Origin: Escherichia coli
Lineage (GTDB): Bacteria; Pseudomonadota; Gammaproteobacteria; Enterobacterales; Enterobacteriaceae
DNA: 64,000 nucleotides
Assembly: GCF_041248615.1 (NCBI RefSeq)
Contig: NZ_CP158426.1
Direction: 5' to 3' (one strand)
In this document: positions 11,712-47,298 of the stretch, piece by piece
Position numbering within the stretch: the stretch's first letter is position 1
Layout: every line of letters starts with the position of its first letter
Position numbers and translations under genes: made by a program
The notes under the pieces: generated by a model
The model's database searches: none
Seen by the model: only the letters and a program-made list of their open reading frames with translations
Told to the model about the DNA's origin: nothing

Positions 11712-11730
11712 AACCTGTTATCTGTTTCCC

Positions 11731-11958: not shown

Positions 11959-12139
11959 AAATCGAAATCAGTTAGTTGATGAAAGGGCAACATATTACCG
12001 TAGCAACGGTTTTTTTTCTGCTTTTTTATGCGTTAAATCATTCTCGTTACGCCGCCTTCTGTAAAATGACCGCCATCTTTTATTGCGTCGCTTAACCGGC
12101 GGTGGTTGAATACCGCCCGGTCTTAAAGGAGAGTTTATC

Positions 12140-13147: not shown

Positions 13148-13166
13148 TCGGTTTTGTGTTCTGAAT

Positions 13167-13200
13167 GCCAGATGCGGCGTGAACGCCTTATCTGGCCTGC
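13167..13200. repeat. REP (repetitive extragenic palindromic) element
   Basis: GCCAGATGCGGCGTGAACGCCTTATCTGGCCTGC. Confidence 0.8.
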
Positions 13201-13241
13201 AAAAAATAGCAATACCGTAATCAGGCATAATTTGCAGAGAC

Positions 13242-13270
13242 AAAAAACCCCGCCGGAGCGGGGTTTTTTA
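13242..13270. terminator. Bidirectional intrinsic terminator shared by convergent yejK and rplY
   Basis: AAAAAACCCCGCCGGAGCGGGGTTTTTTA. Confidence 0.85.
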
Positions 13271-13285
13271 CAACTTATTCAGCAA

Positions 13286-13678
<393 letters not shown>

Positions 13679-13694
13679 TCAATCAAAACTACCA

Positions 13695-15455: not shown

Positions 15456-15604
15456 GGTCTCGCGTAGGTAGATTATTCTGCTAATAGTATGCCACGGATC
15501 TTTTTCCCTTGAGGGAAGTTATTAGACCGCTATACTGGGCAGACAACAGTTCAGATTTTCGGGTCATTACCCGACCTCCGTTTTTTACAGGCAAAATCAC
15601 ACAC

Positions 15605-16300
15605 ATGCGACTTGATAAATTTATCGCACAGCAACTCGGCGTTAGCCGTGCTATTGCCGGGCGTGAAATCCGCGGCAATCGTGTCACCGTCGATGGCGAA
15701 ATCGTCCGTAATGCAGCGTTCAAACTGCTCCCTGAACATGATGTCGCTTACGATGGCAACCCGCTGGCGCAGCAACACGGTCCACGTTACTTCATGCTCA
15801 ATAAACCTCAGGGCTATGTTTGCTCCACGGACGACCCGGATCACCCAACGGTGCTCTATTTTCTTGATGAACCGGTAGCGTGGAAACTGCACGCTGCAGG
15901 GCGTCTGGATATCGATACCACCGGTCTGGTACTAATGACAGATGATGGTCAGTGGTCGCACCGCATTACTTCTCCGCGCCATCATTGCGAGAAGACCTAT
16001 CTGGTGACGCTGGAATCACCCGTAGCTGACGATACGGCAGAGCAATTTGCTAAAGGCGTGCAGCTGCATAACGAAAAAGATCTCACTAAGCCGGCGGTGC
16101 TGGAAGTGATTACCCCAACGCAGGTTCGTTTGACCATCAGCGAAGGGCGTTATCATCAGGTGAAACGTATGTTCGCCGCCGTGGGTAACCATGTGGTTGA
16201 GCTGCATCGTGAACGTATTGGCGGCATTACGCTGGATGCTGATTTAGCTCCCGGTGAATATCGTCCGTTAACTGAAGAAGAAATTGCCAGCGTCGTCTAA
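15605..16300 (+). CDS. rsuA: 16S rRNA pseudouridine(516) synthase RsuA
   Basis: 231 aa from ATG at 15605 ([16 protein letters not shown]...); S4 domain. Confidence 0.93.
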
Positions 16301-16327
16301 CTTTTCAATGACTTTCAGGAGCCCGTT

Positions 16328-17518
16328 GTGACCACCCGACAGCATTCGTCGTTTGCTATTGTTTTTATCCTTGGCCTGCTGGCCATGTTGATGCCGCTGT
16401 CGATTGATATGTATCTGCCCGCGCTACCGGTAATTTCAGCGCAGTTTGGCGTACCGGCAGGCAGTACGCAGATGACCCTCAGTACTTATATTCTGGGCTT
16501 TGCGTTGGGGCAGTTAATCTACGGGCCGATGGCAGACAGCTTCGGGCGTAAGCCGGTGGTTCTTGGCGGTACGCTGGTGTTTGCCGCCGCCGCGGTGGCG
16601 TGTGCGTTGGCACAAACCATCGATCAGCTGATTGTGATGCGTTTCTTCCACGGTCTGGCTGCGGCTGCGGCCAGCGTGGTTATCAACGCTTTGATGCGTG
16701 ATATCTACCCGAAAGAAGAGTTCTCGCGGATGATGTCGTTTGTCATGCTGGTGACGACCATTGCACCGCTGATGGCACCGATAGTTGGCGGCTGGGTGCT
16801 GGTGTGGCTGAGCTGGCATTACATCTTCTGGATCCTCGCTGTGGCGGCGATTCTGGCTTCGGCAATGATCTTCTTTCTGATCAAAGAAACCTTACCACCG
16901 GAGCGTCGCCAGCCTTTTCACATTCGTACTACTATTGGTAACTTTGCGGTGCTGTTCCGTCATAAGCGTGTCCTGAGTTATATGCTTGCCAGTGGTTTCA
17001 GCTTTGCCGGGATGTTCTCGTTCTTAAGCGCCGGACCGTTTGTCTACATTGAAATTAACCACGTCGCGCCGGAAAACTTTGGTTATTACTTTGCGCTAAA
17101 CATTGTTTTTCTGTTCGTGATGACTATCTTTAACAGCCGCTTCGTTCGCCGCATTGGCGCGTTAAATATGTTCCGCTCGGGGTTGTGGATACAGTTTATT
17201 ATGGCGGCGTGGATGGTCATCAGTGCGCTGCTGGGGCTGGGATTCTGGTCGCTGGTGGTTGGCGTTGCGGCGTTTGTGGGCTGCGTGTCGATGGTGTCAT
17301 CTAATGCGATGGCGGTCATTCTGGATGAGTTTCCCCATATGGCGGGAACGGCATCTTCGCTGGCAGGAACCTTCCGTTTCGGCATAGGGGCAATTGTTGG
17401 CGCATTACTTTCTCTTGCGACCTTTAACTCTGCATGGCCGATGATTTGGTCAATTGCATTCTGCGCAACCAGCTCCATTCTCTTCTGTCTGTACGCCAGT
17501 CGGCCGAAAAAACGGTGA
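16328..17518 (+). CDS. bcr: MFS multidrug efflux transporter Bcr (bicyclomycin resistance)
   Basis: 396-aa 12-TM ORF, GTG start. Confidence 0.92.
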
Positions 17519-17531
17519 TCTATTGCACAAC

Positions 17532-17558
17532 GAGGAAGCTAAAAGGCTTCCTTTGTTG
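17532..17558 (+). terminator. Intrinsic terminator after bcr
   Basis: GAGGAAGCTAAAAGGCTTCCTTTGTTG. Confidence 0.7.
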
Positions 17559-17850
17559 ATGCATGTCAACCACAAATCCATCATTCCCCCGATATATGTT
17601 TATTTTATGTAAAATCAATTTATGTAAAAAGTCACATCATTGTAGTTAAAAAGGTTGAGTTAGATCGCAGAAACGGGTACATATAGCCCCGCAAACGTGA
17701 CCACGCCCGCAGATATTATTTAAATCAGAGCCATAGAGGCCACGCTGGCGAGGCATCAATCTTTACGATCTGTATAAAGACGGATTGTTGATGATGTGTT
17801 AAAATTGATGTAAACAAATTGTGAAGTAAATGTGCTTCCGGGGAAAATAA

Positions 17851-18195
17851 GTGACTTCATTACAACTCTCAATCGTCCATCGACTGCCGCAGAACTATCG
17901 CTGGTCTGCTGGTTTCGCAGGTTCGAAGGTTGAACCGATTCCGCAAAATGGACCGTGCGGTGACAACAGCCTGGTGGCGCTTAAATTGCTTAGCCCGGAT
18001 GGTGATAATGCATGGTCGGTGATGTACAAACTAAGCCAGGCGTTAAGCGACATCGAAGTTCCGTGTTCGGTGCTGGAGTGTGAAGGTGAGCCGTGCCTGT
18101 TTGTAAATCGCCAGGACGAGTTTGCAGCAACATGCCGATTGAAAAATTTTGGTGTGGCAATTGCCGAACCCTTTTCAAACTACAATCCTTTTTAA
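17851..18195 (+). CDS. yejG: Uncharacterized protein YejG
   Basis: 114-aa [21 protein letters not shown]..., GTG start. Confidence 0.85.
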
Positions 18196-18198
18196 GCG

Positions 18199-19788
18199 TC
18201 AGCTCAACGCCAGTAGCTGACGCGTATACTCCTGCTGCGGTGCGGCAAACACGCGCGCGCACGGTCCTTGTTCCACTACTTCCCCTTGTCGCAGTACGAT
18301 AACCTGATGACATAACGCGCGGACAACGTGCAAATCGTGGCTGATAAACAAATAGGCCAGTTGATGCTTTTGTTGCAATGATTTCAATAGCGTCAATATT
18401 TGCGCCTGTACCGTTTTGTCGAGTGATGATGTCGGTTCATCGAGTATGATCAGCGAGGGCTTAAGAATTGATGCCCTGGCAATCGCAATACGTTGCCGCT
18501 GACCACCAGAGAACTCCGCTGGATAACGGTGGCGTGTTTCAGGATCTAATCCCACTTCATGCATCACGGCTATCACTTGTTGTTCGCGTTGTGCGGCAGA
18601 AAGCGTCGGCTGGTGAACCCGTAAGCCTTCCTCAATAATTTGCAAAACGTTGAGTCGTGGGTTGAGTGAGGAGTTTGGATCCTGAAATACCACCTGAATG
18701 CGATGACGAATAGGTAACAGCTGGCGGCGATTTAAATTTTGCAGTGGCTGACCGTCAAAGATGATGCTGCCCTGAGAATTAATCAGTCGCAGCAGCGCCA
18801 GTCCCGTCGTGCTTTTCCCGGAACCGGACTCGCCCACTAAACCCAGTGTTTCACCCGCCCGTAGCGTAAAACTGATGTTTTTCACCACCACATTATGATC
18901 CACAATGCGCTTCAAAATCCCTTTGCGAATGGGGAAGGCAACCTGAAGCTGTTCAACATCCAGCAACGTTGAGGCAGGTTCTGGCAATGGCACCGGGTCG
19001 CCTGACGGTTCACTGTTGAGTAGCTTTTGTGTGTAAGGATGAGTGGGTGAGGCAAATAGCGTAGCGGCGTTATTTTGCTCGACACAGCGACCGTTTTGCA
19101 TTACCGCCACGCGATGGGCCAGTTTTCTGACAATGCTGAGGTTATGAGTAATAAACAGCATACCCATATTCAGCTCGCCTTGCAGTTCGCGCAACAGCTG
19201 TAAAATCTGCGCCTGGACAGAGACGTCCAGTGCGGTGGTTGGTTCATCGGCAATTAATAATTCCGGTCGCGTTAACAGCGCCATCGCAATCATCACCCGC
19301 TGGCGTTCGCCGCCGGAGAGCTGATGCGGATAATCTGTCAGCCGTTTTGCCGCCTGGCGGATACCGACGCGATCAAGGCAGTTAAGAATTTCGCCACGAG
19401 CCGCTTCCCGACGCATCCCGCGGTGGAGTGAAAGCACTTCATAAAGCTGTTTTTCCAGGGTATGCAATGGATTTAATGACACCATCGGCTCCTGAAAAAT
19501 CATGGCGATCTTATTACCGCGTACACCGCGCAACGTTTGATCGCTGGCATGAAGCAGCGATTCGCCATGAAAACGAATATCGCCGGAGAGATATTCAACC
19601 GGCGGGGAAGGGAGCAGGCGTAAAATTGACAGCGCGGTAACGCTCTTACCTGAACCAGACTCACCCACCAGCGCCAGCGTTTCGCCAGCCTCAATCTGTA
19701 GTGAAACATCATTGACTACTGTGCGTACGGTTTGCTGATGGCGAAAACCCACCGACAAATTTTCAATCGCTAACAGAGTTTGCGTCAT
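18199..19788 (-). CDS. yejF: Peptide ABC transporter ATPase YejF (two ABC domains)
   Basis: 529 aa from ATG at 19788 ([13 protein letters not shown]...); two Walker A motifs GESGSGKS. Confidence 0.93.
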
Positions 19789-34676: not shown

Positions 34677-36368
34677 ATGAAAACGCTGCTGATTATTGAC
34701 GCTAATCTCGGTCAGGCACGCGCCTATATGGCGAAGACCCTGCTGGGCGCGGCGGCGCGAAAAGCAAAACTGGAAATCATCGACAATCCGAACGACGCTG
34801 AAATGGCGATTGTTCTCGGTGATTCCATCCCGAACGACAGCGCGCTGAACGGTAAAAATGTCTGGCTGGGCGATATTTCCCGGGCAGTTGCGCACCCTGA
34901 GCTGTTCCTGAGTGAAGCCAAAGGCCATGCGAAACCTTACACTGCGCCGGTCGCTGCGGCAGCACCGGTTGCCGCCAGCGGTCCGAAACGCGTAGTTGCG
35001 GTGACTGCTTGCCCGACTGGCGTAGCACACACCTTTATGGCGGCTGAAGCCATTGAAACCGAAGCGAAAAAACGTGGCTGGTGGGTGAAAGTTGAAACCC
35101 GTGGTTCTGTTGGCGCGGGTAATGCAATCACCCCTGAAGAAGTAGACGCAGCGGATCTGGTGATTGTGGCGGCAGATATTGAAGTGGATCTGGCGAAATT
35201 TGCTGGTAAACCGATGTATCGCACCTCTACCGGTCTGGCGCTGAAGAAAACCGCGCAGGAACTGGATAAAGCGGTTGCTGAAGCAACGCCGTATGAACCG
35301 GCGGGCAAAGCTCAAACAGCGACCACTGAAGGTAAGAAAGAGGGTGCAGGCGCTTACCGTCACTTGCTGACGGGCGTCTCTTACATGCTGCCGATGGTCG
35401 TTGCAGGTGGTCTGTGTATCGCGCTTTCTTTTGCTTTTGGTATCGAAGCGTTTAAAGAGCCGGGTACGTTGGCAGCGGCGCTGATGCAGATTGGTGGTGG
35501 TTCAGCCTTTGCGCTGATGGTGCCGGTACTGGCAGGTTATATTGCCTTCTCCATTGCCGATCGTCCGGGTCTCACGCCGGGTCTGATTGGCGGTATGCTG
35601 GCGGTCAGCACTGGTTCTGGCTTCATTGGCGGTATTATTGCGGGCTTCCTGGCTGGTTACATTGCGAAGTTAATCAGTACGCAATTGAAACTGCCACAGA
35701 GTATGGAGGCGCTGAAACCGATTCTGATCATTCCGCTAATTTCCAGTCTGGTGGTCGGTCTGGCGATGATCTACCTGATCGGTAAACCGGTTGCTGGCAT
35801 TCTCGAAGGGTTGACTCACTGGCTGCAGACCATGGGGACTGCGAATGCGGTTCTGCTGGGGGCGATCCTCGGTGGCATGATGTGTACTGACATGGGCGGT
35901 CCGGTAAACAAAGCAGCGTACGCGTTCGGTGTGGGTCTGCTGAGTACTCAAACCTATGGCCCGATGGCGGCGATTATGGCGGCAGGTATGGTGCCACCGC
36001 TGGCAATGGGCCTGGCAACAATGGTGGCGCGTCGCAAATTCGACAAAGCGCAGCAGGAAGGGGGCAAAGCCGCTCTGGTATTGGGACTGTGCTTCATTTC
36101 GGAAGGTGCAATTCCGTTTGCTGCTCGTGATCCGATGCGTGTGCTGCCGTGCTGTATCGTGGGTGGGGCGCTGACTGGCGCAATCTCAATGGCGATTGGT
36201 GCGAAACTGATGGCACCGCACGGTGGTCTGTTTGTTCTGCTGATCCCTGGCGCGATTACGCCGGTATTGGGTTACCTGGTAGCCATTATTGCCGGTACGC
36301 TGGTGGCGGGTTTGGCCTATGCCTTCCTGAAACGTCCGGAAGTGGACGCAGTTGCGAAAGCAGCGTAA
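34677..36368 (+). CDS. fruA: Fructose PTS EIIB'BC component FruA
   Basis: 563-aa ORF. Confidence 0.94.
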   Translation: MKTLLIIDANLGQARAYMAKTLLGAAARKAKLEIIDNPNDAEMAIVLGDSIPNDSALNGKNVWLGDISRAVAHPELFLSEAKGHAKPYTAPVAAAAPVAASGPKRVVAVTACPTGVAHTFMAAEAIETEAKKRGWWVKVETRGSVGAGNAITPEEVDAADLVIVAADIEVDLAKFAGKPMYRTSTGLALKKTAQELDKAVAEATPYEPAGKAQTATTEGKKEGAGAYRHLLTGVSYMLPMVVAGGLCIALSFAFGIEAFKEPGTLAAALMQIGGGSAFALMVPVLAGYIAFSIADRPGLTPGLIGGMLAVSTGSGFIGGIIAGFLAGYIAKLISTQLKLPQSMEALKPILIIPLISSLVVGLAMIYLIGKPVAGILEGLTHWLQTMGTANAVLLGAILGGMMCTDMGGPVNKAAYAFGVGLLSTQTYGPMAAIMAAGMVPPLAMGLATMVARRKFDKAQQEGGKAALVLGLCFISEGAIPFAARDPMRVLPCCIVGGALTGAISMAIGAKLMAPHGGLFVLLIPGAITPVLGYLVAIIAGTLVAGLAYAFLKRPEVDAVAKAA

Positions 36369-36378
36369 TAAAAGGTGT

Positions 36379-36409
36379 GTTGCAGGGCAGAAATTTTCTG
36401 CCCTGCAAC
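36379..36409 (+). terminator. Perfect 14-bp hairpin after fruA (probable terminator)
   Basis: GTTGCAGGGCAGAAATTTTCTGCCCTGCAAC, weak U-tract. Confidence 0.6.
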
Positions 36410-36524
36410 ATTTGATGCGCGCAAAGAGAATGACCGGTTTGTGAATGTAATTTTATGAATTTAAATGGTTTTATCTTTTAGTGGAAACCTGAAACTTTCA
36501 TCAAACACTAAGGTTATTTCCTCA

Positions 36525-36553
36525 AGGGCAGATTAATTTCTGCCCTTTTTTAT
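36525..36553 (+). terminator. Second intrinsic terminator in fruA-psuK spacer
   Basis: AGGGCAGATTAATTTCTGCCCTTTTTTATT. Confidence 0.7.
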
Positions 36554-36791
36554 TGTTCCTGTTCTGTGCATCCCGTCACAAATTCTCCGTTTTTATAATT
36601 CAGGCATTTAATCGCGTTTTGTGAGCCTGCTCAAATCTGCCCATTTTGCCTCTCTGGCGGTAATTTACTTTACGTAAAACATGCATACTATGAGCACATG
36701 TTTAAATATGAACACATGTTTAAACCATCTTTGCAGTATCTATATTCTTGTGGATTGACAGGATTGGTAATTTTTTACCAGAGGACGTGCT

Positions 36792-37733
36792 ATGCGCGAA
36801 AAGGATTATGTCGTAATTATAGGTTCGGCGAATATTGATGTCGCCGGATATTCACATGAATCATTAAATTATGCGGATTCAAATCCAGGTAAAATAAAAT
36901 TTACGCCTGGTGGAGTAGGGCGCAATATTGCACAAAACCTGGCGTTGCTGGGGAATAAAGCCTGGCTACTGAGCGCAGTAGGAAGTGATTTTTATGGTCA
37001 ATCGTTGCTAACGCAAACAAATCAATCTGGTGTTTATGTCGATAAATGCCTGATTGTGCCGGGAGAAAATACGTCGAGCTATTTATCATTACTCGATAAT
37101 ACCGGTGAAATGCTGGTTGCTATAAATGACATGAATATTAGCAACGCTATTACAGCTGAATATCTCGCACAGCACCGTGAATTTATTCAGAGGGCAAAGG
37201 TCATTGTCGCAGACTGTAATATCAGTGAAGAGGCACTGGCATGGATTCTGGATAATGCTGCCAACGTACCCGTATTTGTCGATCCGGTTTCAGCGTGGAA
37301 ATGTGTCAAAGTGCGCGACCGTCTAAATCAGATCCACACTCTCAAGCCAAACCGCCTTGAAGCGGAAACCCTGAGTGGGATTGCGCTGTCAGGGCGTGAA
37401 GATGTGGCAAAAGTTGCTGCCTGGTTCCATCAACATGGCCTGAACCGACTGGTATTGAGCATGGGCGGCGACGGCGTTTATTACAGTGATATCAGCGGTG
37501 AAAGTGGTTGGTCTGCGCCGATCAAAACCAATGTCATTAATGTTACCGGAGCGGGCGATGCCATGATGGCGGGACTTGCTTCGTGTTGGGTAGACGGAAT
37601 GCCGTTTGCCGAATCTGTTCGTTTCGCACAGGGATGTTCGTCAATGGCGCTCTCCTGTGAATACACCAATAACCCCGATTTATCGATTGCCAACGTTATA
37701 TCGTTAGTGGAGAACGCAGAATGTCTGAATTAA
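36792..37733 (+). CDS. psuK: Pseudouridine kinase PsuK (YeiC; pfkB family)
   Basis: 313-aa ORF. Confidence 0.92.
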   Translation: MREKDYVVIIGSANIDVAGYSHESLNYADSNPGKIKFTPGGVGRNIAQNLALLGNKAWLLSAVGSDFYGQSLLTQTNQSGVYVDKCLIVPGENTSSYLSLLDNTGEMLVAINDMNISNAITAEYLAQHREFIQRAKVIVADCNISEEALAWILDNAANVPVFVDPVSAWKCVKVRDRLNQIHTLKPNRLEAETLSGIALSGREDVAKVAAWFHQHGLNRLVLSMGGDGVYYSDISGESGWSAPIKTNVINVTGAGDAMMAGLASCWVDGMPFAESVRFAQGCSSMALSCEYTNNPDLSIANVISLVENAECLN

Positions 37734-38659
37734 AAATTTCCCCTGAATTATTACAAATTTCCCCGGAAGTGCAGGACGCTTTAAAAAACAAAAAACCGAT
37801 CGTGGCGCTGGAATCGACCATTATTTCTCACGGGATGCCGTTCCCACAAAATGCCCAGACCGCAATTGAAGTTGAAGAAACTATTCGTAAACAGGGCGCT
37901 GTACCTGCCACTATCGCCATTATTGGCGGCGTGATGAAAGTGGGTTTAAGCAAAGAAGAAATTGAATTGCTGGGTCGTGAAGGGCATAACGTGACCAAAG
38001 TTAGTCGTCGCGATTTACCTTTTGTTGTTGCCGCAGGGAAAAATGGCGCAACCACCGTTGCTTCAACGATGATTATTGCGGCGATTGCCGGAATTAAAGT
38101 ATTTGCCACTGGGGGAATTGGTGGAGTGCATCGCGGGGCGGAACATACCTTCGATATTTCTGCCGATTTGCAAGAGCTGGCAAATACTAATGTCACCGTT
38201 GTTTGTGCCGGGGCGAAATCTATTCTCGATTTAGGATTAACCACTGAGTATTTAGAAACTTTCGGTGTACCGCTAATTGGCTATCAGACCAAAGCGCTGC
38301 CTGCGTTTTTCTGCCGCACCAGCCCGTTTGACGTCAGCATTCGTCTCGACAGCGCCAGCGAAATTGCCCGTGCAATGGCGGTGAAATGGCAAAGCGGGCT
38401 GAACGGTGGCCTGGTGGTGGCAAATCCGATCCCGGAACAGTTTGCGATGCCGGAGGAATCTATCAATGCAGCCATAGATCAAGCCGTTGCCGAAGCCGAA
38501 GAGCAGGGCGTTATTGGTAAAGAAAGCACACCGTTCCTGCTGGCTCGTGTTGCTGAACTGACTGGCGGTGACAGCCTGAAATCCAACATCCAACTGGTGT
38601 TCAACAACGCCATTCTGGCGAGCGAAATTGCCAAAGAATACCAGCGTCTCGCGGGTTAA
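37721..38659 (+). CDS. psuG: Pseudouridine-5'-phosphate glycosidase PsuG (YeiN)
   Basis: 312-aa ORF; 13-nt overlap with psuK. Confidence 0.92.
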   Translation: MSELKISPELLQISPEVQDALKNKKPIVALESTIISHGMPFPQNAQTAIEVEETIRKQGAVPATIAIIGGVMKVGLSKEEIELLGREGHNVTKVSRRDLPFVVAAGKNGATTVASTMIIAAIAGIKVFATGGIGGVHRGAEHTFDISADLQELANTNVTVVCAGAKSILDLGLTTEYLETFGVPLIGYQTKALPAFFCRTSPFDVSIRLDSASEIARAMAVKWQSGLNGGLVVANPIPEQFAMPEESINAAIDQAVAEAEEQGVIGKESTPFLLARVAELTGGDSLKSNIQLVFNNAILASEIAKEYQRLAG

Positions 38660-38752
38660 TTTCTGACGGGCAGAAAGCCGTCGCCCGTACTGATCATACA
38701 TACCAAAACCTGGCGCTGACGCCGGGTTTACTGGCATGAAGGGAAAATCATT

Positions 38753-40003
38753 ATGGATATAATGAGAAGTGTTGTGGGGATGGTGGTGTTACTGGCAATA
38801 GCATTTCTGTTGTCAGTGAATAAAAAGAGCATCAGTTTGCGCACGGTTGGAGCCGCGCTGCTGCTACAAATCGCCATTGGCGGCATCATGCTCTATTTTC
38901 CACCAGGAAAATGGGCGGTAGAGCAGGCGGCATTAGGCGTTCATAAAGTGATGTCTTACAGTGATGCCGGTAGCGCCTTTATTTTTGGTTCATTGGTCGG
39001 GCCGAAAATGGATGTCCTGTTTGATGGCGCGGGCTTTATCTTCGCCTTTCGCGTACTCCCGGCGATTATCTTCGTCACTGCGCTCATCAGCCTGCTGTAC
39101 TACATTGGCGTGATGGGGCTGCTAATCCGCATTCTTGGCAGTATTTTTCAGAAAGCCCTCAACATCAGCAAAATCGAATCTTTTGTTGCGGTTACCACTA
39201 TTTTCCTCGGGCAAAATGAGATCCCGGCGATCGTAAAACCGTTTATCGATCGCATGAATCGCAACGAGCTATTTACGGCAATTTGTAGCGGGATGGCGTC
39301 CATTGCCGGTTCGATGATGATTGGTTATGCCGGAATGGGCGTACCAATTGACTACCTGTTAGCGGCATCGCTGATGGCGATCCCTGGTGGTATTTTGTTT
39401 GCACGTATTCTTAGCCCGGCCACCGAGCCTTCGCAGGTCACATTTGAAAATCTGTCGTTCAGCGAAACGCCGCCAAAAAGCTTTATCGAAGCGGCGGCGA
39501 GCGGTGCGATGACCGGGCTCAAAATCGCCGCTGGTGTAGCGACGGTGGTAATGGCGTTTGTCGCAATTATTGCGCTGATCAACGGCATTATCGGCGGAAT
39601 TGGCGGCTGGTTTGGTTTCGCCAATGCCTCTCTGGAAAGTATTTTTGGCTATGTGCTGGCACCGCTGGCGTGGATCATGGGTGTGGACTGGAGTGATGCC
39701 AACCTGGCGGGTAGCCTGATTGGGCAGAAACTGGCGATTAACGAATTCGTCGCTTACCTGAGTTTCTCCCCATACCTGCAAACGGGCGGCACGCTGGAAG
39801 CGAAAACCATTGCGATTATCTCCTTTGCGCTTTGTGGTTTTGCTAACTTTGGTTCTATCGGTGTTGTCGTTGGGGCATTTTCGGCTATTTCGCCAAAACG
39901 TGCTCCGGAAATCGCTCAGCTTGGTTTAAGGGCGCTGGCAGCAGCAACGCTTTCCAACCTGATGAGCGCGACCATTGCCGGGTTCTTTATTGGTTTAGCT
40001 TGA
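38753..40003 (+). CDS. psuT: NupC-family nucleoside transporter PsuT (YeiM)
   Basis: 416-aa polytopic ORF. Confidence 0.92.
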   Translation: MDIMRSVVGMVVLLAIAFLLSVNKKSISLRTVGAALLLQIAIGGIMLYFPPGKWAVEQAALGVHKVMSYSDAGSAFIFGSLVGPKMDVLFDGAGFIFAFRVLPAIIFVTALISLLYYIGVMGLLIRILGSIFQKALNISKIESFVAVTTIFLGQNEIPAIVKPFIDRMNRNELFTAICSGMASIAGSMMIGYAGMGVPIDYLLAASLMAIPGGILFARILSPATEPSQVTFENLSFSETPPKSFIEAAASGAMTGLKIAAGVATVVMAFVAIIALINGIIGGIGGWFGFANASLESIFGYVLAPLAWIMGVDWSDANLAGSLIGQKLAINEFVAYLSFSPYLQTGGTLEAKTIAIISFALCGFANFGSIGVVVGAFSAISPKRAPEIAQLGLRALAAATLSNLMSATIAGFFIGLA

Positions 40004-40010
40004 GTGTCAT

Positions 40011-40050
40011 TGCCGGATGTACGCGCTTATTAAGCGTCACATCCGGCAAT
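40011..40050. repeat. REP element
   Basis: TGCCGGATGTACGCGCTTATTAAGCGTCACATCCGGCAAT. Confidence 0.8.
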
Positions 40051-40071
40051 CGCGCTATTGCAGATTATTTT

Positions 40072-40731
40072 TTACTGCATCATCCCGGAGAATTTATTCT
40101 CCGGGTCCATCTCCAGCGCCAGTCCTGACAACTGCTTTCTGTTTTTAATTAGATATCCTTTCTTGCTTTTAATTAATAAACCGTCGTGAATGAATTGCGC
40201 GAGAACATATAAAAGATGTCGATAAGAAACGCCTAAATACTCTGCCGCTTGCGTATGCTTTTCGTGATAAAGATCACCTTCTTGTGAGAGTAATATAAAA
40301 GCTGCCAGGCGATTCACTAACGGAAATGATTGATTCTGAGTTAAAGAAACAATATTGCGATAATTTTTATGGCTTAAACTAACGCAGAGTTTTCGTAAAA
40401 ATAGTGTGTCGTTTAATAACAGCGGGCGGTAATGTTTCATAGGGAGCGCAAGACACCAACACTCTTCAATAGCCTGTACCGCACGCGGTTCATGGTCTTT
40501 ATCTATTAACTCAATCTCACCAATAAAACAGGGGGCGGCAAAGAAATCGATCAGCGACACGCGACCATTAGCTAGCGTGGCGTAAAGCCTGGCGCGGCCT
40601 CGCGTCAGGTAAAACAGCCAGGACGGCTGTTGCCCTTCCTGCACAATGTAGTCACGCGCTAAAAAATGAAACAACCGCGTATCGGCTGAAACATCCGTTG
40701 AAAAGCAATCCTTAAACGCGGATTCACTCAT
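40072..40731 (-). CDS. yeiL: CRP/FNR-family transcriptional regulator YeiL
   Basis: 219 aa from ATG at 40731 ([10 protein letters not shown]...); ORF extends 13 codons upstream. Confidence 0.88.
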
Positions 40732-40899
40732 CAATTGCTGCTTAAGATCATTATTGTGGATTTCTTTCACGATGTTTATCCGCTATGAGATTTCTCATAT
40801 TTAGCATACGTACGCTGTTGTTAAGATTCAATCATCGGCCCGGTCGAATTTTCTTTGCTGTAGAAAAAATAACGCAACTGGAAACAGAGGAAATAAACA

Positions 40900-41841
40900 A
40901 TGGAAAAGAGAAAAATTATTCTGGATTGTGATCCGGGTCATGATGATGCTATTGCCATAATGATGGCTGCGAAACATCCGGCGATTGATTTATTAGGTAT
41001 CACTATTGTGGCGGGTAATCAGACGCTTGATAAAACATTAATTAATGGCCTGAATGTTTGCCAGAAACTGGAGATTAATGTTCCGGTTTATGCGGGGATG
41101 CCGCAGCCAATTATGCGTAAACAAATCGTTGCCGATAATATTCACGGAGAAACCGGACTGGATGGCTCGGTATTCGAGCCACTGACCTGTAAAGCTGAAA
41201 GCACCCATGCGGTGAAATACATCATCGATACTCTGATGGCAAGCGATGGCGATATCACTCTGGTACCGGTTGGTCCGCTTTCAAACATCGCGGTGGCAAT
41301 GCGGATGCAGCCTGCAATTCTGCCGAAAATCCGTGAAATAGTGCTGATGGGCGGCGCTTACGGTACAGGTAACTTCACGCCGTCTGCCGAGTTCAACATC
41401 TTTGCCGACCCGGAAGCCGCACGCGTGGTGTTCACCTCCGGTGTTCCGTTGGTGATGATGGGCCTCGATCTCACCAACCAGACTGTTTGCACCCCGGACG
41501 TGATTGCTCGGATGGAAAGGGCAGGCGGCCCCGCCGGAGAGCTGTTCAGCGACATCATGAATTTCACTCTAAAAACGCAGTTCGAAAACTACGGCCTGGC
41601 TGGCGGCCCGGTGCATGACGCCACCTGCATCGGTTATCTGATTAACCCTGATGGCATTAAAACCCAGGAGATGTACGTCGAAGTGGACGTCAACAGTGGC
41701 CCTTGCTATGGGCGTACTGTCTGCGACGAGCTGGGCGTTCTTGGCAAGCCCGCTAATACCAAAGTCGGCATCACTATTGATACCGACTGGTTCTGGGGAT
41801 TAGTCGAAGAGTGCGTGCGCGGCTACATCAAAACCCATTAA
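40900..41841 (+). CDS. rihB: Pyrimidine-specific ribonucleoside hydrolase RihB
   Basis: 313 aa; N-terminal DCDPGHDD motif. Confidence 0.93.
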
Positions 41842-41940
41842 GTGTTGATAACAAGCCGGGTCAGTATCGCAAGATGCAGGCCCGGCTATTTCTGATGGGC
41901 AGAAAGCCGTCGCCCAAAATGGCATGAAGAGATAATAACT

Positions 41941-43191
41941 ATGGATGTCATGAGAAGTGTTCTGGGAATGGTGGTACTGCTGGCAATTGCATTTTTACTG
42001 TCAGTAAACAAGAAGAAGATCAGCCTGCGTACTGTCGGTGCGGCGCTGGTATTACAGGTCGTGATTGGCGGGATTATGCTTTGGTTACCGCCAGGGCGTT
42101 GGGTCGCAGAAAAAGTCGCTTTTGGCGTCCATAAAGTGATGGCGTACAGCGATGCAGGTAGCGCTTTTATCTTCGGTTCGCTGGTCGGGCCGAAAATGGA
42201 CACCTTATTTGATGGCGCAGGATTTATCTTTGGCTTCAGGGTATTACCGGCAATTATCTTCGTTACAGCACTGGTGAGTATTCTCTACTACATCGGTGTG
42301 ATGGGGATCTTAATTCGCATTCTCGGCGGTATATTCCAGAAAGCATTGAATATCAGCAAGATTGAGTCATTCGTCGCGGTCACTACCATTTTCCTCGGGC
42401 AAAACGAAATTCCGGCAATCGTCAAACCCTTTATCGATCGTCTGAATCGCAATGAATTATTTACAGCGATTTGTAGCGGGATGGCCTCGATTGCTGGTTC
42501 GACAATGATTGGTTACGCCGCACTGGGCGTGCCTGTGGAATATCTGCTGGCGGCATCGTTAATGGCGATCCCCGGCGGGATCTTGTTTGCCCGCCTGTTA
42601 AGCCCGGCTACGGAATCTTCGCAGGTTTCCTTTAATAACCTCTCTTTCACCGAAACACCGCCAAAAAGCATTATTGAAGCCGCCGCTACAGGGGCAATGA
42701 CCGGACTGAAAATCGCAGCAGGTGTGGCGACAGTGGTGATGGCATTTGTTGCAATAATTGCGTTGATTAACGGTATTATCGGCGGCGTTGGCGGCTGGTT
42801 TGGTTTTGAACATGCCTCGCTGGAGTCCATTTTAGGTTACCTGTTGGCCCCACTGGCGTGGGTGATGGGGGTTGACTGGAGTGATGCGAATCTTGCCGGA
42901 AGTTTGATTGGACAGAAGCTGGCAATAAATGAATTTGTCGCTTACCTCAATTTCTCACCTTATCTGCAAACAGCTGGCACTCTCGATGCTAAAACCGTGG
43001 CGATTATTTCCTTCGCGTTGTGCGGTTTCGCTAACTTTGGTTCTATCGGGGTGGTGGTTGGCGCATTTTCTGCGGTTGCGCCACACCGTGCACCGGAAAT
43101 CGCCCAGCTTGGTTTACGCGCGCTGGCGGCGGCGACACTTTCTAACCTGATGAGTGCCACCATTGCAGGATTCTTTATTGGCTTAGCGTAG
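41941..43191 (+). CDS. nupX: NupC-family nucleoside transporter NupX (paralog of psuT)
   Basis: 416-aa ORF, roughly 80% identical by eye to the psuT product. Confidence 0.92.
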   Translation: MDVMRSVLGMVVLLAIAFLLSVNKKKISLRTVGAALVLQVVIGGIMLWLPPGRWVAEKVAFGVHKVMAYSDAGSAFIFGSLVGPKMDTLFDGAGFIFGFRVLPAIIFVTALVSILYYIGVMGILIRILGGIFQKALNISKIESFVAVTTIFLGQNEIPAIVKPFIDRLNRNELFTAICSGMASIAGSTMIGYAALGVPVEYLLAASLMAIPGGILFARLLSPATESSQVSFNNLSFTETPPKSIIEAAATGAMTGLKIAAGVATVVMAFVAIIALINGIIGGVGGWFGFEHASLESILGYLLAPLAWVMGVDWSDANLAGSLIGQKLAINEFVAYLNFSPYLQTAGTLDAKTVAIISFALCGFANFGSIGVVVGAFSAVAPHRAPEIAQLGLRALAAATLSNLMSATIAGFFIGLA

Positions 43192-43203
43192 TGCGCGAGT
43201 TAT

Positions 43204-43241
43204 GAGCCGGATAAGATGTAGTCAAGCGTCGAATCCGGCAA
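43204..43241. repeat. REP-like palindromic element
   Basis: GAGCCGGATAAGATGTAGTCAAGCGTCGAATCCGGCAA. Confidence 0.7.
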
Positions 43242-43246
43242 CATTG

Positions 43247-44335
43247 TTACACCATCGGCACTAATGAAAGCGCGTTATCGGCAGACAGGGTAGGGTTGTT
43301 TAAGCTGCCGCTGGCGCGTGAAATTGCCGCGCAGGCCATCGCAAAACGGGCGCTGTCACGGAAATTGTTTCCCTCCAGAAAGCTATATACCAGGCCCGCC
43401 ATAAAACCATCGTCAGCACCAAAACTGTCTACTGTCGTATGCGCTGGCGCTGTCAGCAAAAATTGCTCTCCATTCTTTTCGCTGCAATAAACTGACTCAT
43501 CGGGCAAATAAACAAACAGTTGCTGAACGCCTTGCTGATGCAACGCATTCACTGCGGTATTACGGTCAGCATCGCTGGTGATCGCCTGTCCCCATAAAAT
43601 TTCCAGCTCCGGTAAAGTGGGTTTCAGGGTGTGAATATGCGCCAGCCAGTGTTTGATTTTGCCCGCTTTGAATTCTGAAACGGTATCGACAAACACCGGG
43701 ATTTCATCAGCGAGGGTAAAGACCCACTCCAGCGCCTCGGCTGTCAGGTTGCAATCAGCCAGTACCACGCCCGCATGACGAAGTAAATCGCGCGACCCGT
43801 TCAGTAGTTGCGGTGTCAACTGATCCAGCAGATGGGTATCGTTAATCGCCAGCACGATTTGATCGTCTCGATTGGCAATTGCCAGATACGTCGATGTGCT
43901 TTGACCATGTAAACGAACGCAGCCGGAGACATTCACGCCGGCGCGGCGCGTTTCTTCCAGGAGCATTTCGCCATAAAAGTCATCGCCAATCACTGAAAGC
44001 AAATGGACGTCGCGGCCTAACAGCGCCAGATTGTGGGCGATATTGCGTCCAACGCCGCCTGCCGAGCAATGAATTGTACCGGGATGAGAAGCCGCTTGCG
44101 GGTAACGGATATCCGCCATCCCGCGAATATCCATATTGATTGTCCCCACCACTACGCAGTATTCCTGCTCGGTGAGAATGTAACCTTTGCCTTTAATCCG
44201 GCCTTTGCGCATTAAATCCATAATATGCGCCGCAACGCGCGAACGGCTGATTTGCAGCATATCCGCAATTTCGTTCTGCTGAATCAGCGGGTTACGCCGT
44301 AAAATTGCAAGGATCTCCTTCTCCCGGTTGTTCAT
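43247..44335 (-). CDS. yeiI: HTH + pfkB-family sugar/nucleoside kinase-like protein YeiI
   Basis: 362 aa; N-terminal ~60-aa HTH-like segment, then pfkB domain homologous to PsuK (GGVGRNIA, HTLKP). Confidence 0.9.
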   Translation of the reverse strand: MNNREKEILAILRRNPLIQQNEIADMLQISRSRVAAHIMDLMRKGRIKGKGYILTEQEYCVVVGTINMDIRGMADIRYPQAASHPGTIHCSAGGVGRNIAHNLALLGRDVHLLSVIGDDFYGEMLLEETRRAGVNVSGCVRLHGQSTSTYLAIANRDDQIVLAINDTHLLDQLTPQLLNGSRDLLRHAGVVLADCNLTAEALEWVFTLADEIPVFVDTVSEFKAGKIKHWLAHIHTLKPTLPELEILWGQAITSDADRNTAVNALHQQGVQQLFVYLPDESVYCSEKNGEQFLLTAPAHTTVDSFGADDGFMAGLVYSFLEGNNFRDSARFAMACAAISRASGSLNNPTLSADNALSLVPMV

Positions 44336-44337
44336 CT

Positions 44338-45195
44338 TCAGGCTACCGCTTTTTCAGTTTGTTGCGCTTTCAGCCAGGCGATCTCTTCTGCCCAGATATC
44401 CGGGTTGATGGTTTCAAGGATCAGCGGAATGCCGTCGAAACGGTCGTCCTGCATGATCCAGCGGAACGCATCATGACCGATATTGCCTTCACCGAGGCTA
44501 TGATGGCGGTCAACGCGGCTGCCAAAGGTGCTTTTCGCATCGTTAAGGTGCATCCCGCGCAGATACTTAAAGCCGACAATACGGGCAAAATCCGCGAACG
44601 TTTTCTCGCATTCGGCTGGAGTACGCAAATCATACCCGGCAGCAAAAGCATGGCAGGTATCAATGCAGACGCCGACGCGGGATTTATCTTCCACGCCGTC
44701 GATAATCGCCGCGAGATGTTCGAATTTAAACCCTAAGTTACTGCCCTGACCGGCGGTGTTTTCAATCACCGCTGTCACACCTTGAGTTTTATCCAGCGCA
44801 ATGTTGATGGATTCGGCAATACGCGCAAGGCAATCCTCTTCTGAAATCTGCATCAGATGGCTGCCAGGGTGGAAGTTGAGCAAAGAAAGCCCCAGCTGTT
44901 CGCAACGCTGCATTTCATCTATAAACGCATCGCGCGATTTTTCCAGAGCTTCAGCGACCGGATGTCCGAGGTTAATCAGATAACTGTCGTGGGGAAGAAT
45001 TTGCGCCGATGTGTAGTGATATTTTTCACAGGCGGCTTTGAATTCATCGATGGTTTGCGTCGTGAGCGGTGCGGCACGCCACTGACGTTGGTTTTTGGTG
45101 AACAAGGCAAACGCGGTTGCGTCGATTTCAGCGGCGCGAATTGCGGCATTTGCCAGACCGCCAGCAGCACTAACGTGCGCTCCAATGTATTTCAT
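44338..45195 (-). CDS. nfo: Endonuclease IV
   Basis: 285-aa [16 protein letters not shown]... Confidence 0.95.
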
Positions 45196-45268
45196 GCGAG
45201 GACTCCTGTTAAACCCGCTGGAGGAAAACGGTAATGATAGCGGGTTAACAGGAGCAAGATGTAGTGGT

Positions 45269-46318
45269 TTATGCGATGACGCTTTGAATCACATAGTTAA
45301 TCGCACCACCACCAACAATCAGCCAGGCAAACAGTACCAGTGCCATCAGCAGAGGTTTCGCCCCGGCTTTTTTCAGTGCGCTGACGTGAGTGGTCAGACC
45401 CAGCGCCGCCATCGCCATTGCCAGCAGGAAGGTATCCAGCGTTACCAGCATGTTCACCACGCTCTGCGGTAACAGGTGGAACGAGTTAAAGATGGCAACT
45501 ACGATGAACAAGATGGCAAACCACGGAATAGTGATTTTGCTTTTCTCGCCGCTGTTCGCCCCAGACAGCTGTTTAACACGCGCCGCCAGCAGGATGAGGA
45601 ACGGAGCCAGCATCATCACGCGCAGCATTTTGGAAATAACTGCTGCGTTTTCCGCATCCGGGCTGATGGCATGACCTGCCGCCACCACCTGCGCCACTTC
45701 GTGCACAGTAGAACCAATGTAGATACCGAAAGTTTCCGGACTAAACCATTGAGACATCAGCGGATATATCGCCGGGTAGAGGAAAATCGCCACGGTCCCG
45801 AAGATAACAACGGTTGCAACAGCCACGGTTACTTTACTGGCTTCCGCTTTCACTACCGGCTCAGTCGCCAGTACCGCGGCAGCACCACAGATACTGCTAC
45901 CGGCACCGATCAACCAGCTGGTGTGCTTATCCAGACCAAACACTTTCTGCCCCAGGAAGCAAGCCAGCAGGAAGGTACTGGACAGCGTCAGCACGTCAAT
46001 GATGATCCCACTGATACCGACATCGGCAATTTGCGAGAACGTCAGACGGAAGCCATAAAGAATGATACCCAGACGTAATAAATATTGCTTGGCAAACAGC
46101 ACACCACCGTCACAGCTTTTCCAGATGTGCGGATAGATGGTGTTGCCTAAAACCATCCCCAACAAGATTGCGAGGGTGAGGGCACTAAACCCGGCACCCG
46201 CAACCGCGGGAATGGAACCACCCCACAGGGCGACCCCGGTGATAACTGCACTCAGGGCTAACCCCGGAATAAAATGCCACAGTGTACGATGTTGTTTCTG
46301 TAAGGTGATATTCGTCAT
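45269..46318 (-). CDS. yeiH: UPF0324 inner-membrane protein YeiH
   Basis: 349-aa polytopic ORF, divergent from yeiE. Confidence 0.9.
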
Positions 46319-46416
46319 AACCCTCTCCTTTAACCGGGCATAAGGTTACGACTAACTGGTTTAAAAATAAAATTGATTATATATTTATAATTAATCTTTA
46401 TAAGTGGTAAGCGACT

Positions 46417-47298
46417 ATGCACATCACCCTCCGGCAGTTGGAAGTTTTTGCAGAAGTATTGAAAAGTGGATCAACCACCCAGGCGTCGGTGATGCTGGCG
46501 TTGTCGCAATCAGCAGTGAGCGCAGCCTTGACCGACCTGGAAGGGCAGCTTGGCGTGCAACTGTTTGATCGCGTGGGGAAAAGACTGGTAGTTAATGAAC
46601 ACGGGCGACTGCTCTATCCGCGTGCGTTGGCACTGCTTGAACAGGCGATCGAAATCGAACAACTGTTTCGCGAAGACAACGGTGCGATTCGTATCTATGC
46701 CAGTAGTACCATCGGTAACTACATTCTGCCTGCAGTCATTGCCCGTTATCGCCATGATTATCCGCAGTTGCCGATTGAACTTAGCGTTGGGAACAGCCAG
46801 GACGTGATGCAAGCGGTGCTGGATTTCCGCGTTGATATTGGCTTTATTGAAGGACCGTGCCACAGCACTGAAATCATTTCTGAACCGTGGCTGGAAGACG
46901 AGCTGGTGGTTTTCGCCGCGCCGACTTCGCCATTGGCTCGTGGTCCGGTCACCTTAGAACAGCTGGCCGCTGCGCCGTGGATCCTGCGTGAACGCGGCTC
47001 CGGCACGCGGGAGATTGTCGATTATCTGTTGCTGTCACATTTACCGAAGTTTGAGATGGCGATGGAATTAGGTAACTCCGAGGCAATCAAACATGCGGTG
47101 CGTCATGGGTTGGGAATTAGTTGCCTGTCGCGGCGGGTGATTGAAGATCAATTGCAGGCAGGCACATTAAGTGAAGTTGCGGTCCCTCTGCCGCACCTGA
47201 TGCGTACGTTGTGGCGTATACATCATCGGCAAAAACACCTTTCCAACGCGCTACGGCGCTTTCTGGACTATTGCGATCCCGCGAATGTACCGCGTTAA
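46417..47298 (+). CDS. yeiE: LysR-type transcriptional regulator YeiE
   Basis: 293 aa; N-terminal HTH. Confidence 0.92.

Follow-up and report, generated by a model that had tools for sequence, protein, structure and literature searches.

Regulators that are built on enzymes, or descend from them, are known from several pathways. In BirA, NadR and the archaeal RbkR, an N-terminal helix-turn-helix (HTH) or winged helix-turn-helix (wHTH) is joined to an enzyme of the pathway, and the ligand of that enzyme controls DNA binding. In a second group, comprising the ROK repressors Mlc and NagC, NrtR (Nudix) and Bacillus subtilis PurR (phosphoribosyltransferase fold), the sensor is derived from an enzyme that still binds its ligand but is catalytically inactive. 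Our literature search found no PfkB-based enzyme-regulator and no pseudouridine kinase with an HTH. Here, we describe a candidate: YeiI, encoded in a 64,000-nucleotide stretch of Escherichia coli DNA (contig NZ_CP158426.1; hereafter the window), which joins an HTH to a PfkB domain resembling that of the pseudouridine kinase PsuK. On balance, though far from firmly, comparative evidence leads us to favour YeiI being a one-component, pseudouridine-responsive repressor of the psuKGT operon, which would have split off from an ancestor that was both kinase and repressor and would be expressed by read-through from nfo.

PsuK of E. coli (YeiC, or EcPUKI; structures 7VTD, 7VVA and 7VKP) is the best described relative. 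Its ribose is held by N14 and D16, with D256 as the catalytic base at O5′, and the nucleobase is lined by Y97, N112 and M114; the hallmarks of base reading are Ser/Thr30, contributed by the partner subunit, Asn143 and Lys170 (PMC9061257). Substrate induces closure of the dimer from 66 to 51 Å (PMC9061257). The conserved GXXG motif is a small ATP-binding loop of pseudouridine kinase (PMC9247573). One study calls YeiI itself uncharacterised and places it closest to the pseudouridine kinases of E. coli and Arabidopsis (PMC9061257). Machine-learning tools label it a pseudouridine kinase, a label criticised in 2025, and since a psuK mutant by itself cannot use pseudouridine, YeiI is not a redundant kinase (PMC12506659). 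YeiI also appears among hypothetical transcription factors (PMC6055005). We did not use the LysR-type label given to 'YeiI' in a paper on LeuO; Pfam does not support it, and YeiE was most likely meant.

The gene is already annotated, as 'yeiI: sugar kinase' in RefSeq and 'putative sugar kinase YeiI' in K-12, and the NCBIfam equivalog NF007416 ('sugar kinase') matches it with 809 bits against a cutoff of 561. The HTH-PfkB features are real, far beyond chance, and known; what is new is the functional assignment and the split between enzyme and regulator.

An earlier note on this DNA, made from the sequence alone, had described YeiI as an HTH-kinase fusion paralogous to PsuK. This is borne out by Pfam matches to both domains, by 40% identity to PsuK over 307 amino acids (E 4e-78) and by the tree considered below. 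HTH_24 (PF13412) matches residues 1-48 (E 1.2e-10; 41.2 bits, cutoff 21.9), and PfkB (PF00294) matches residues 58-348 (E 2.9e-66; 224 bits, cutoff 25.8). The translated N-terminus reads MNNREKEILAILRRNPLIQQNEIADMLQISRSRVAAHI, as the note had quoted it. The recognition helix, at about residues 31-43 (ISRSRVAAHIMDLMRKG), conforms to ISRSxVAxHIMxL, a pattern near-invariant in the HTH-PfkB family; R31 and A35 never vary among 46 family members, and S32, H37 and I38 hardly do. The YeiI HTH is 84-91% conserved between genera, and is 48-72% identical to the HTHs of fusions linked to psuG.

A full-length AlphaFold2 model of YeiI, built from a 46-sequence alignment, has a predicted local distance difference test score (pLDDT) of 91 and a predicted template modelling score (pTM) of 0.83. 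Superposition of its kinase-like part on 7VTD (E. coli pseudouridine kinase) gives a template modelling (TM) score of 0.96 and a root-mean-square deviation (rmsd) of 1.8 Å, and its top Foldseek matches are EcPUKI and ribokinases (TM 0.85-0.96). Foldseek with the YeiI model found no PDB entry spanning both HTH and kinase. Modelled alone, the N-terminal 58 residues (pLDDT 88.8) form helices at 3-14, 20-27 and 31-43 plus a beta hairpin. All of the top 50 PDB matches to this model are DNA-binding winged-helix domains of the Lrp/AsnC, MarR and LexA types, with neighbours as close as AdcR (TMq 0.88, rmsd 0.9 Å). The Foldseek E-values are only 0.07-0.3, which is no surprise with so small a domain; searched by sequence against the PDB, the 58 residues give marginal matches only (E 0.04-1). 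The earlier note had allowed that this segment might prove not to be a DNA-binding fold. The Pfam match above cutoff and the winged-helix model point the other way, and by both sequence and model the N-terminus is a wHTH of DNA-binding type.

Gene order ties this architecture to pseudouridine catabolism. A protein search found HTH-PfkB proteins in Enterobacterales, Pasteurellaceae, Shewanella and Vibrionaceae, and a survey of one genome per species gave 80 loci, whose neighbours were annotated by tblastn with the proteins of the window. Outside the core Enterobacteriaceae, psuG lies directly 3′ of the HTH-PfkB gene in 60 of 68 loci, often with psuT next, and the HTH-PfkB gene is the first of the psuK-psuG operon from Firmicutes to Yersinia; gene calls confirm the adjacency. 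The taxa concerned include Yersinia, Serratia, Hafnia, Photorhabdus, Xenorhabdus, Gilliamella, Aquitalea, Vogesella, Paludibacterium, Shewanella, Aeromonas, Vibrio, Enterovibrio, Grimontia, Ferrimonas, Hahella, Algicola and Clostridia/Oscillospiraceae. The eight loci without an adjacent psuG comprise Xenorhabdus paralogs, one truncated contig and one short Aeromonas locus. Xenorhabdus genomes hold two or three HTH-PfkB paralogs; the extra copies, away from psuG, keep KPNxxE and G(A/S)GD and may be kinase-regulators for other nucleosides.

Within the Enterobacteriaceae, all 13 loci show the linkage nfo>yeiI><psuT-psuG-psuK. The order yeiE< >yeiH >nfo >yeiI <psuT <psuG <psuK is found in Escherichia, Citrobacter, Enterobacter, Klebsiella, Leclercia, Phytobacter and Entomohabitans. 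Here PsuK is without an HTH, and yeiI lies outside the psuG operon, convergent to psuT, which it abuts directly in E. albertii, Citrobacter, Enterobacter, Klebsiella and Leclercia. In rare Salmonella strains, a yeiI><psuT-psuG-psuK unit sits in an accessory island (GCA_010633625.1, Salmonella enterica, 1-19095) flanked by transposases and a RelB/ParE toxin-antitoxin pair. There is no intact nfo in this island; a remnant of the 3′ end of nfo makes up the final ~30 bp ahead of yeiI, which indicates that the cassette was mobilised from an Enterobacteriaceae chromosome. The island also carries a thymidine/pyrimidine-nucleoside phosphorylase-like gene. Together with the loci that lack rihB-nupX-yeiL, it identifies psuKGT, and not rihB/nupX, as the conserved partner of yeiI.

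A palindrome, AAACAnnTGTTT, travels with the HTH-psuK gene. It is located upstream, often in tandem copies 17-19 bp apart, and across the 68 loci its ACAnnTGT core occurs at 4.3 per kb in the 160 bp 5′ of HTH-psuK versus 0.16 per kb elsewhere, a 28-fold enrichment. The flanks are nearly always AAACA/TGTTT, and these sites are often paired at 19 bp, in taxa that include beta-proteobacteria and Anaerotruncus, and an AAGCAnn(n)GCTT variant occurs in other Firmicutes. In Yersinia, Serratia, Hafnia and Photorhabdus, a -35 element (TTTACT) and a -10 element are followed by two near-repeats of the form ACAAAC(G/A)CATGTTTAAA. The HTH-less psuK of E. coli, E. albertii, Citrobacter and Enterobacter retains a CRP-like site, a -35 (TTTAC(T/A)), a -10 and two palindromes, GA(G/A)CA(C/T)(A/G)TG(T/C)T(T/C), spaced 18 bp apart in an otherwise poorly conserved spacer. 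The order of -35, -10 and operator is the same for Yersinia-type HTH-psuK and E. coli psuK.

We scored the window with a matrix trained solely on non-Enterobacteriaceae sites upstream of HTH-psuK (consensus ACAAACATATGTTTGT). The best match in the whole 64 kb is the site at 36708 upstream of psuK (16.4 bits), and the fifth best is its partner at 36690 (9.1 bits). Random sequence of the same length holds 0.157 sites of the strength of 36708, and the tandem pair arose in 0 of 300 simulations. The orthologous psuK sites of Klebsiella score 16.7-20.1 bits, and the Salmonella island gives 21.8 bits. No matrix site comparable to those of psuK was found upstream of nfo, yeiH, yeiL, rihB or nupX. When the 47-bp tandem operator was searched by BLAST against 5426 complete E. 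coli genomes, it matched a median of one chromosomal place per matching genome (maximum two); it is essentially single-copy, and no second near-identical target was seen. An Rfam scan of 36000-46500 returned no match, and the conserved psuK leader is therefore no known riboswitch. From Firmicutes to Proteobacteria, HTH-PsuK is the only protein conserved beside the palindrome, and in the Enterobacteriaceae, YeiI is the only protein with an HTH of that type. Sequence-specific DNA binding by YeiI is predicted, indirectly, from a family-linked palindrome upstream of psuK.

Other matches in the window were set aside. The exact pattern GARCAYRTGYTY, allowing one mismatch, is not enriched (9 found, 8.2 expected), and the only further exact match, at 21073, falls within coding sequence and has no flanks. 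Matrix matches inside yeiE (46655, 10.8 bits) and inside yeiH (45561-45576, CCAGACAGCTGTTTAA, 12.5 bits, the second best) are both intragenic and were treated as chance. The yeiH site lies ~365 bp upstream of nfo and is conserved in K-12 and in strain TUM13754; it could matter if YeiI feeds back on yeiH-nfo-yeiI.

The putative psuK promoter elements were read by eye, the consensus scan being below its 9/12 threshold there. The CRP-like site (TGTGA-N6-TCA(A/T)A), the -35 and the -10 are all conserved in Escherichia, Citrobacter and Enterobacter, and the first of these may put pseudouridine catabolism under catabolite control. HTH-PsuK of Yersinia, Serratia and Hafnia would gain MFKNKQVSxM from an in-frame upstream ATG within the first operator, a start that gene callers use in two proteins; this start may be misannotated, as the nucleotide conservation looks regulatory rather than coding. 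Aeromonas HTH-psuK departs from the family both in its recognition helix (ISRSALASHISSL) and in the spacing of its motif (ACAAACGTTTGT), a motif that also resembles LacI-family sites. The conserved element of Aeromonas, GACAAACGTTTG(C/T)AA plus GGATGTTTGTCTATG, stands some 40 bp 5′ of HTH-psuK. Either the half-site spacing has co-varied with the HTH there, or control has passed to a LacI-type regulator.

The kinase-like domain combines a preserved nucleoside pocket with altered phosphoryl-transfer motifs. Aligned to EcPUKI, YeiI retains eight of the nine pseudouridine contacts (PsuK to YeiI: N14=N67, D16=D69, S30=S83, Y97=Y150, N112=N165, N143=N196, K170=K223 and D256=D309), the sole change being M114 to T167. 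The counterparts of the three hallmarks S30, N143 and K170 are invariant. The GGVGRNIA and HTLKP motifs, which the earlier note had read as common to both proteins, are indeed present in both (YeiI 93-100 and 235-239; PsuK 40-47 and 182-186), and the GGxGxN sugar motif is invariant across the family.

In the ribokinase family, the Asn of NXXE helps bind Mg2+ and phosphate, and the Gly of GXGD forms the anion hole. In YeiI, NXXE has become T240-L-P-E243; the Asn (PsuK N187) is replaced in 10 of 10 YeiI sequences (by Thr, or Ala in Entomohabitans), but is present in 35 of 36 fusions and in all PsuK. The loop G225-G-D-G228 of PsuK aligns with P278-D-E-S281, and neither Gly occurs in any YeiI. GXGD has become G306-A-D308-D309, in which the catalytic Asp is present and the Gly (PsuK G255) is Asp in all ten YeiI, against Gly in 36 of 36 fusions. 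Where the psuG-linked fusions and HTH-less PsuK carry DSNPG, KPNxxE, GxxG and GAGD, YeiI has (A/V/S)S(H/N)PG, KPTxxE (KMAxxD in Entomohabitans), no loop Gly (for example YLPDESV) and GADD. Among the 71 kinase-domain columns that are at least 85% conserved in the 36 fusions, YeiI retains 54, and ten are replaced in all YeiI (in PsuK numbering L25Y, D29A, M107T, M114T, N187T, S223Y/C, G225x, G228S, G255D and T292I/L).

A check of the catalytic residues, as the earlier note had proposed, therefore gives a mixed picture: the catalytic Asp and the NXXE Glu are kept, D309 and E243 being near-invariant in the alignments, but the NXXE Asn, GXXG and the GXGD Gly are replaced. The pattern suggests that nucleoside binding is retained and phosphoryl transfer impaired or rewired. 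Because NXXE has become TXXE, GXXG is lost and GAGD has become GADD, YeiI probably works poorly, or not at all, as a kinase. The NCBIfam pseudouridine-kinase equivalog NF007355 gives YeiI only 259.8 bits against a cutoff of 540. Given this score, the missing GXXG and NXXE Asn, its place outside the operon and the published genetics, YeiI should not be classed as a pseudouridine kinase.

The history of the two paralogs was reconstructed from their kinase domains by neighbour joining (301 columns, 100 bootstraps, outgroup FruK). YeiI forms a clade (bootstrap 100) that is the long-branched sister to Yersinia-type fusions plus HTH-less PsuK (80); the HTH-less PsuK clade is itself supported at 100, and all three lie within an Enterobacterales clade (94). 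Mean identities are 41% for YeiI and PsuK, 48% for YeiI and the Yersinia type, and 58% for PsuK and the Yersinia type. With the shared promoter and operator layout, these results mark HTH-less PsuK as the positional descendant of HTH-PsuK. We infer that PsuK descended from HTH-PsuK by loss of the HTH, and that YeiI is a diverged paralog that retained it.

The repressor we propose would have arisen from a bifunctional HTH-pseudouridine kinase heading the psu operon. After duplication, the two jobs would have been divided: PsuK kept catalysis and lost the HTH, while YeiI kept the HTH and the nucleoside pocket and had its ATP/Mg machinery rewritten. YeiI would dimerise through the beta-clasp, as PsuK does, and so present two wHTH domains to each palindrome. 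Two such dimers would cover approximately -8 to +26 of the inferred start near 36698, blocking psuK transcription. Pseudouridine would sit at the subunit interface, where Ser83 of the partner would touch N1, and would trigger closure, shifting the HTH pair and releasing the DNA. CRP would add catabolite control of psuKGT, and read-through and translational coupling from nfo would keep yeiI expression low. The idea of a metabolite-sensing regulator, raised in the earlier note, is in this form supported as the best reading by the comparative evidence. We advance more tentatively, as a proposal that could well fail, that YeiI is the first PfkB-fold pseudokinase transcription factor, a pseudouridine sensor that would reuse the dimer closure of its enzyme ancestor to release AAACAnnTGTTT operators. 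By extension, HTH-PsuK fusions from Firmicutes to Proteobacteria would be self-regulating enzymes that control the salvage of pseudouridine, the most abundant RNA modification.

Several observations weigh against this proposal. The regulatory link between YeiI and psuKGT is wholly a comparative inference. Palindrome 1 is weak in E. coli (9.1 bits), and Enterobacter and one Citrobacter have only degenerate copies (<11 bits). There is no operator-like site 5′ of nfo or yeiI, and so no sign of autoregulation. The LacI-like motif of Aeromonas suggests that other regulators can occupy psu promoters. Kinase activity may not be lost, since D309 and E243 are kept, and the new Asp308 could belong to a rewired, active site. 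The pocket-side changes L25Y, D29A, M107T and M114T mean that the ligand may not be plain pseudouridine. Finally, genomic systematic evolution of ligands by exponential enrichment (SELEX) mapped a site of sigma-70 RNA polymerase to the nfo>yeiI boundary (PMC3946193), so that yeiI may have a promoter of its own instead of depending purely on read-through.

Some of these points bear on the main alternative, that YeiI is still an active bifunctional kinase, with another substrate such as a modified pseudouridine or other nucleoside, its HTH responding to substrate or product. We regard this as unlikely, but as deserving serious attention. The near-invariance of D309 and E243 and the purifying selection on the kinase-like domain (omega 0.115) would both be explained, and the changes D29A, M114T, L25Y and M107T, beside the base pocket and fixed in all YeiI, are what a change of specificity would be expected to produce. 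The G-to-D and N-to-T replacements could even compensate for each other in metal binding. However, NXXE, GXXG and the GXGD Gly are altered together, though canonical in psuG-linked fusions and HTH-less PsuK; the three residues that define pseudouridine recognition are unchanged; and the only conserved glycosidase/hydrolase neighbour of yeiI is psuG.

The earlier note had suggested that YeiI regulates rihB-nupX as a second modified-nucleoside salvage module, one mirroring psuK-psuG-psuT. The adjacency is real in E. coli, and nupX encodes a nucleoside transporter and rihB a pyrimidine nucleosidase, but we now find this target improbable. The rihB-nupX-yeiL block lies between psuT and yeiI only in E. 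coli, Phytobacter and Entomohabitans, and that interval lacks it in E. albertii, Citrobacter, Enterobacter, Klebsiella, Leclercia and the Salmonella island. The 89% identity of NupX to PsuT marks the block as a late insertion with a duplicated transporter, and nupX is convergent with yeiI, not co-oriented. The family operator motif is absent from the yeiL/rihB and rihB/nupX spacers, being found upstream of psuK only, and the module brings its own regulator, yeiL, a CRP/FNR-type protein by Pfam. In strain TUM13754, nupX is frameshifted.

A little less probable still is a role for YeiI with nfo in oxidative stress or DNA repair, for example in handling damaged nucleosides, with the psuKGT linkage incidental. 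The attraction of this idea lies in the junction. As the earlier note had stated, yeiI starts 2 bp after the nfo stop on the same strand: coordinates confirm this, with the last base of the nfo TGA at 44338 and the first base of the yeiI ATG at 44335. A spacing of 0-3 bp has been conserved in E. coli (both alleles), E. albertii, Enterobacter, four Citrobacter, Phytobacter, two Klebsiella and Leclercia, and is longer in Entomohabitans only. Further, nfo belongs to the SoxRS regulon, so yeiI might rise under superoxide stress. Yet among the surveyed loci outside the Enterobacteriaceae, nfo never adjoins an HTH-PfkB gene, where psuG does so in 60 of 68; the Salmonella island keeps yeiI and psuTGK with only the 3′ remnant of nfo; and the pseudouridine-specific residues are conserved. 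We regard the nfo-yeiI linkage as positional, and see no functional logic for stress induction.

Co-transcription of nfo and yeiI, also suggested in the earlier note, is plausible from the sequence, and likely given the conserved 0-3 bp junction in several genera. A consensus scan found no terminator-like site on the minus strand at the junction, although this is a weak test: its 3 promoter-like and 4 terminator-like sites in 42900-46500 are not above shuffles. The only minus-strand promoter candidate upstream of yeiI within nfo is CTGCCA-16-TATGAT (44656-44629), and the SELEX peak allows an additional yeiI promoter there as a possibility. No strong Shine-Dalgarno precedes the yeiI ATG, which fits translational coupling and a low level of YeiI. 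The literature search returned nothing on an nfo-yeiI transcript, or on targets or a ligand of YeiI.

That YeiI is a redundant, decaying paralog of no current function is very improbable, for although its catalytic motifs are degenerate, its ratio of non-synonymous to synonymous substitution rates (dN/dS) is 2-4x that of its neighbours and disrupted alleles occur occasionally (for example H33), a full-length open reading frame (ORF) is intact in 5420 of 5426 E. coli genomes and in at least 8 genera, the HTH is strongly conserved among genera, and dN/dS is 0.105 at a synonymous divergence (dS) of 0.92 between two E. coli allele classes (0.054 for the HTH, 0.115 for the kinase-like domain), so that the gene is kept by purifying selection.

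These two allele classes are sharply separated. At yeiI, 3360 genomes are at least 95% identical to the window, 2012 fall at 80-90% (~81%), and only 2 lie between; K-12-type psuK was detected by megablast in 4226 of 5426 genomes. The unequal counts for yeiI and psuK alleles imply recombinant haplotypes. Against strain TUM13754, dS is 0.92 for yeiI and 1.30, 0.60 and 0.56 for psuK, psuG and psuT, but only 0.03-0.08 for nfo, yeiH and yeiE, and the divergence ends sharply at the nfo stop codon. A dS of 0.9-1.3 is about the level between E. coli and Salmonella. The two classes were noted at 43247-44335 and 36287-40003 of the window and in NZ_CP134362.1, and the divergent alleles cluster with E. 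albertii. Either ancient introgression or balancing selection could have produced the two haplotypes.

The host of the window is E. coli; the 2.4-kb stretch around nfo-yeiI is 100% identical to NZ_LT599825.1 and is found in 5421 of 5426 complete E. coli genomes. In comparison with the otherwise near-identical K-12, the least conserved stretch is the convergent yeiI/nupX spacer (43192-43246; ~69% identity in alignment), which measures 55 bp here versus 106 bp in K-12 and contains one hairpin resembling a repetitive extragenic palindrome (REP). This hairpin, 3′ of yeiI, is a possible transcript end or stabiliser. Coordinates of all features are collected in Table 1.

Table 1. Features of the nfo-yeiI-psuKGT region, in window coordinates.
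Feature	Position	Strand	Description and basis
nfo (endonuclease IV)	44338-45195	-	285 aa; ORF listing, Pfam AP_endonuc_2 E 8.5e-69, RefSeq
yeiI	43247-44335	-	362 aa; ORF and translation, RefSeq, NCBIfam NF007416
Winged helix-turn-helix, YeiI residues 1-57	44165-44335	-	Pfam HTH_24, AlphaFold2, Foldseek
PsuK-like PfkB domain, YeiI residues 58-348	43292-44164	-	Pfam, superposition on 7VTD; phosphoryl-transfer motifs altered
nfo stop/yeiI start junction	44336-44337	-	TGA AG ATG, read from sequence
psuK-psuG-psuT operon	36792-40003	+	Pfam PfkB, Indigoidine_A, nucleoside-transporter domains
Putative psuK promoter region	36620-36691	+	CRP-like, -35 and -10 blocks, read by eye
CRP-like site TGTGA-N6-TCAAA	36620-36635	+	TGTGAGCCTGCTCAAA; ~70 bp 5′ of inferred psuK start
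psuK -35 TTTACT	36664-36669	+	by eye
psuK -10 TACTAT	36686-36691	+	by eye
Operator-like palindrome 1, upstream of psuK	36690-36705	.	ATGAGCACATGTTTAA; 9.1 bits, matrix
Operator-like palindrome 2, upstream of psuK	36708-36723	.	ATGAACACATGTTTAA; 16.4 bits, matrix
yeiL (-), rihB (+), nupX (+) block	40072-43191	mixed	lineage-specific insertion between psuT and yeiI
rihB	40900-41841	+	pyrimidine nucleosidase
nupX	41941-43191	+	nucleoside transporter; convergent with yeiI
REP-like hairpin, yeiI/nupX convergent spacer	43202-43244	-	RNA fold -15.3 kcal/mol, z -2.0

As one of the remaining uncharacterised genes of E. coli K-12, yeiI now has a concrete and testable hypothesis attached to it. It names a ligand (pseudouridine), a 34-bp target (36690-36723), an outcome (repression of psuKGT) and the residues T240, P278-S281 and D308. 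If the hypothesis is true, it supplies the missing regulator of bacterial pseudouridine catabolism, and it provides a natural example of enzyme and repressor jobs divided between paralogs. The PfkB fold would also join the folds recruited as sensors of transcription factors, and the regulator would be useful for engineering pseudouridine production in E. coli (PMC10552469, PMC13090712). If it is wrong, yeiI remains an ordinary annotated paralog. We see here a tidy evolutionary case rather than a new principle.

Among known systems, PsuK is like YeiI in its PfkB fold, in N14/D16, the catalytic Asp and S30/N143/K170, and in neighbourhood. YeiI differs from it in its extra 57-residue wHTH, in TXXE, GADD, M114T, D29A and the absence of GXXG, and in its position outside the psuG operon, and it does not replace PsuK genetically (PMC12506659). 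As a proposed sensor built from an HTH and an enzyme fold, YeiI would resemble Mlc/NagC, NrtR and PurR, although the folds are unrelated and, for YeiI, the loss of catalysis is a prediction from sequence.

The psuG-linked HTH-PsuK fusions, variously named 'pseudouridine kinase' or 'PfkB family carbohydrate kinase', probably serve as enzyme and autoregulator at once. In this they would resemble BirA, NadR and RbkR, which pair enzyme with repressor, and the Shewanella fusion even gives a faint BirA HTH match, but the enzyme folds differ, being biotin ligase, NMN (nicotinamide mononucleotide) adenylyltransferase/ribosylnicotinamide kinase and CTP-dependent riboflavin kinase, respectively. The fusions of Yersinia, Serratia, Hafnia, Photorhabdus, Shewanella, Vibrio, Chromobacteriaceae and Clostridia share with YeiI the same architecture, a near-identical recognition helix and the same type of palindrome at the psu promoter. 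Unlike YeiI, they keep canonical kinase motifs, and each is the only psuK of its operon, whereas YeiI is a separate gene behind nfo.

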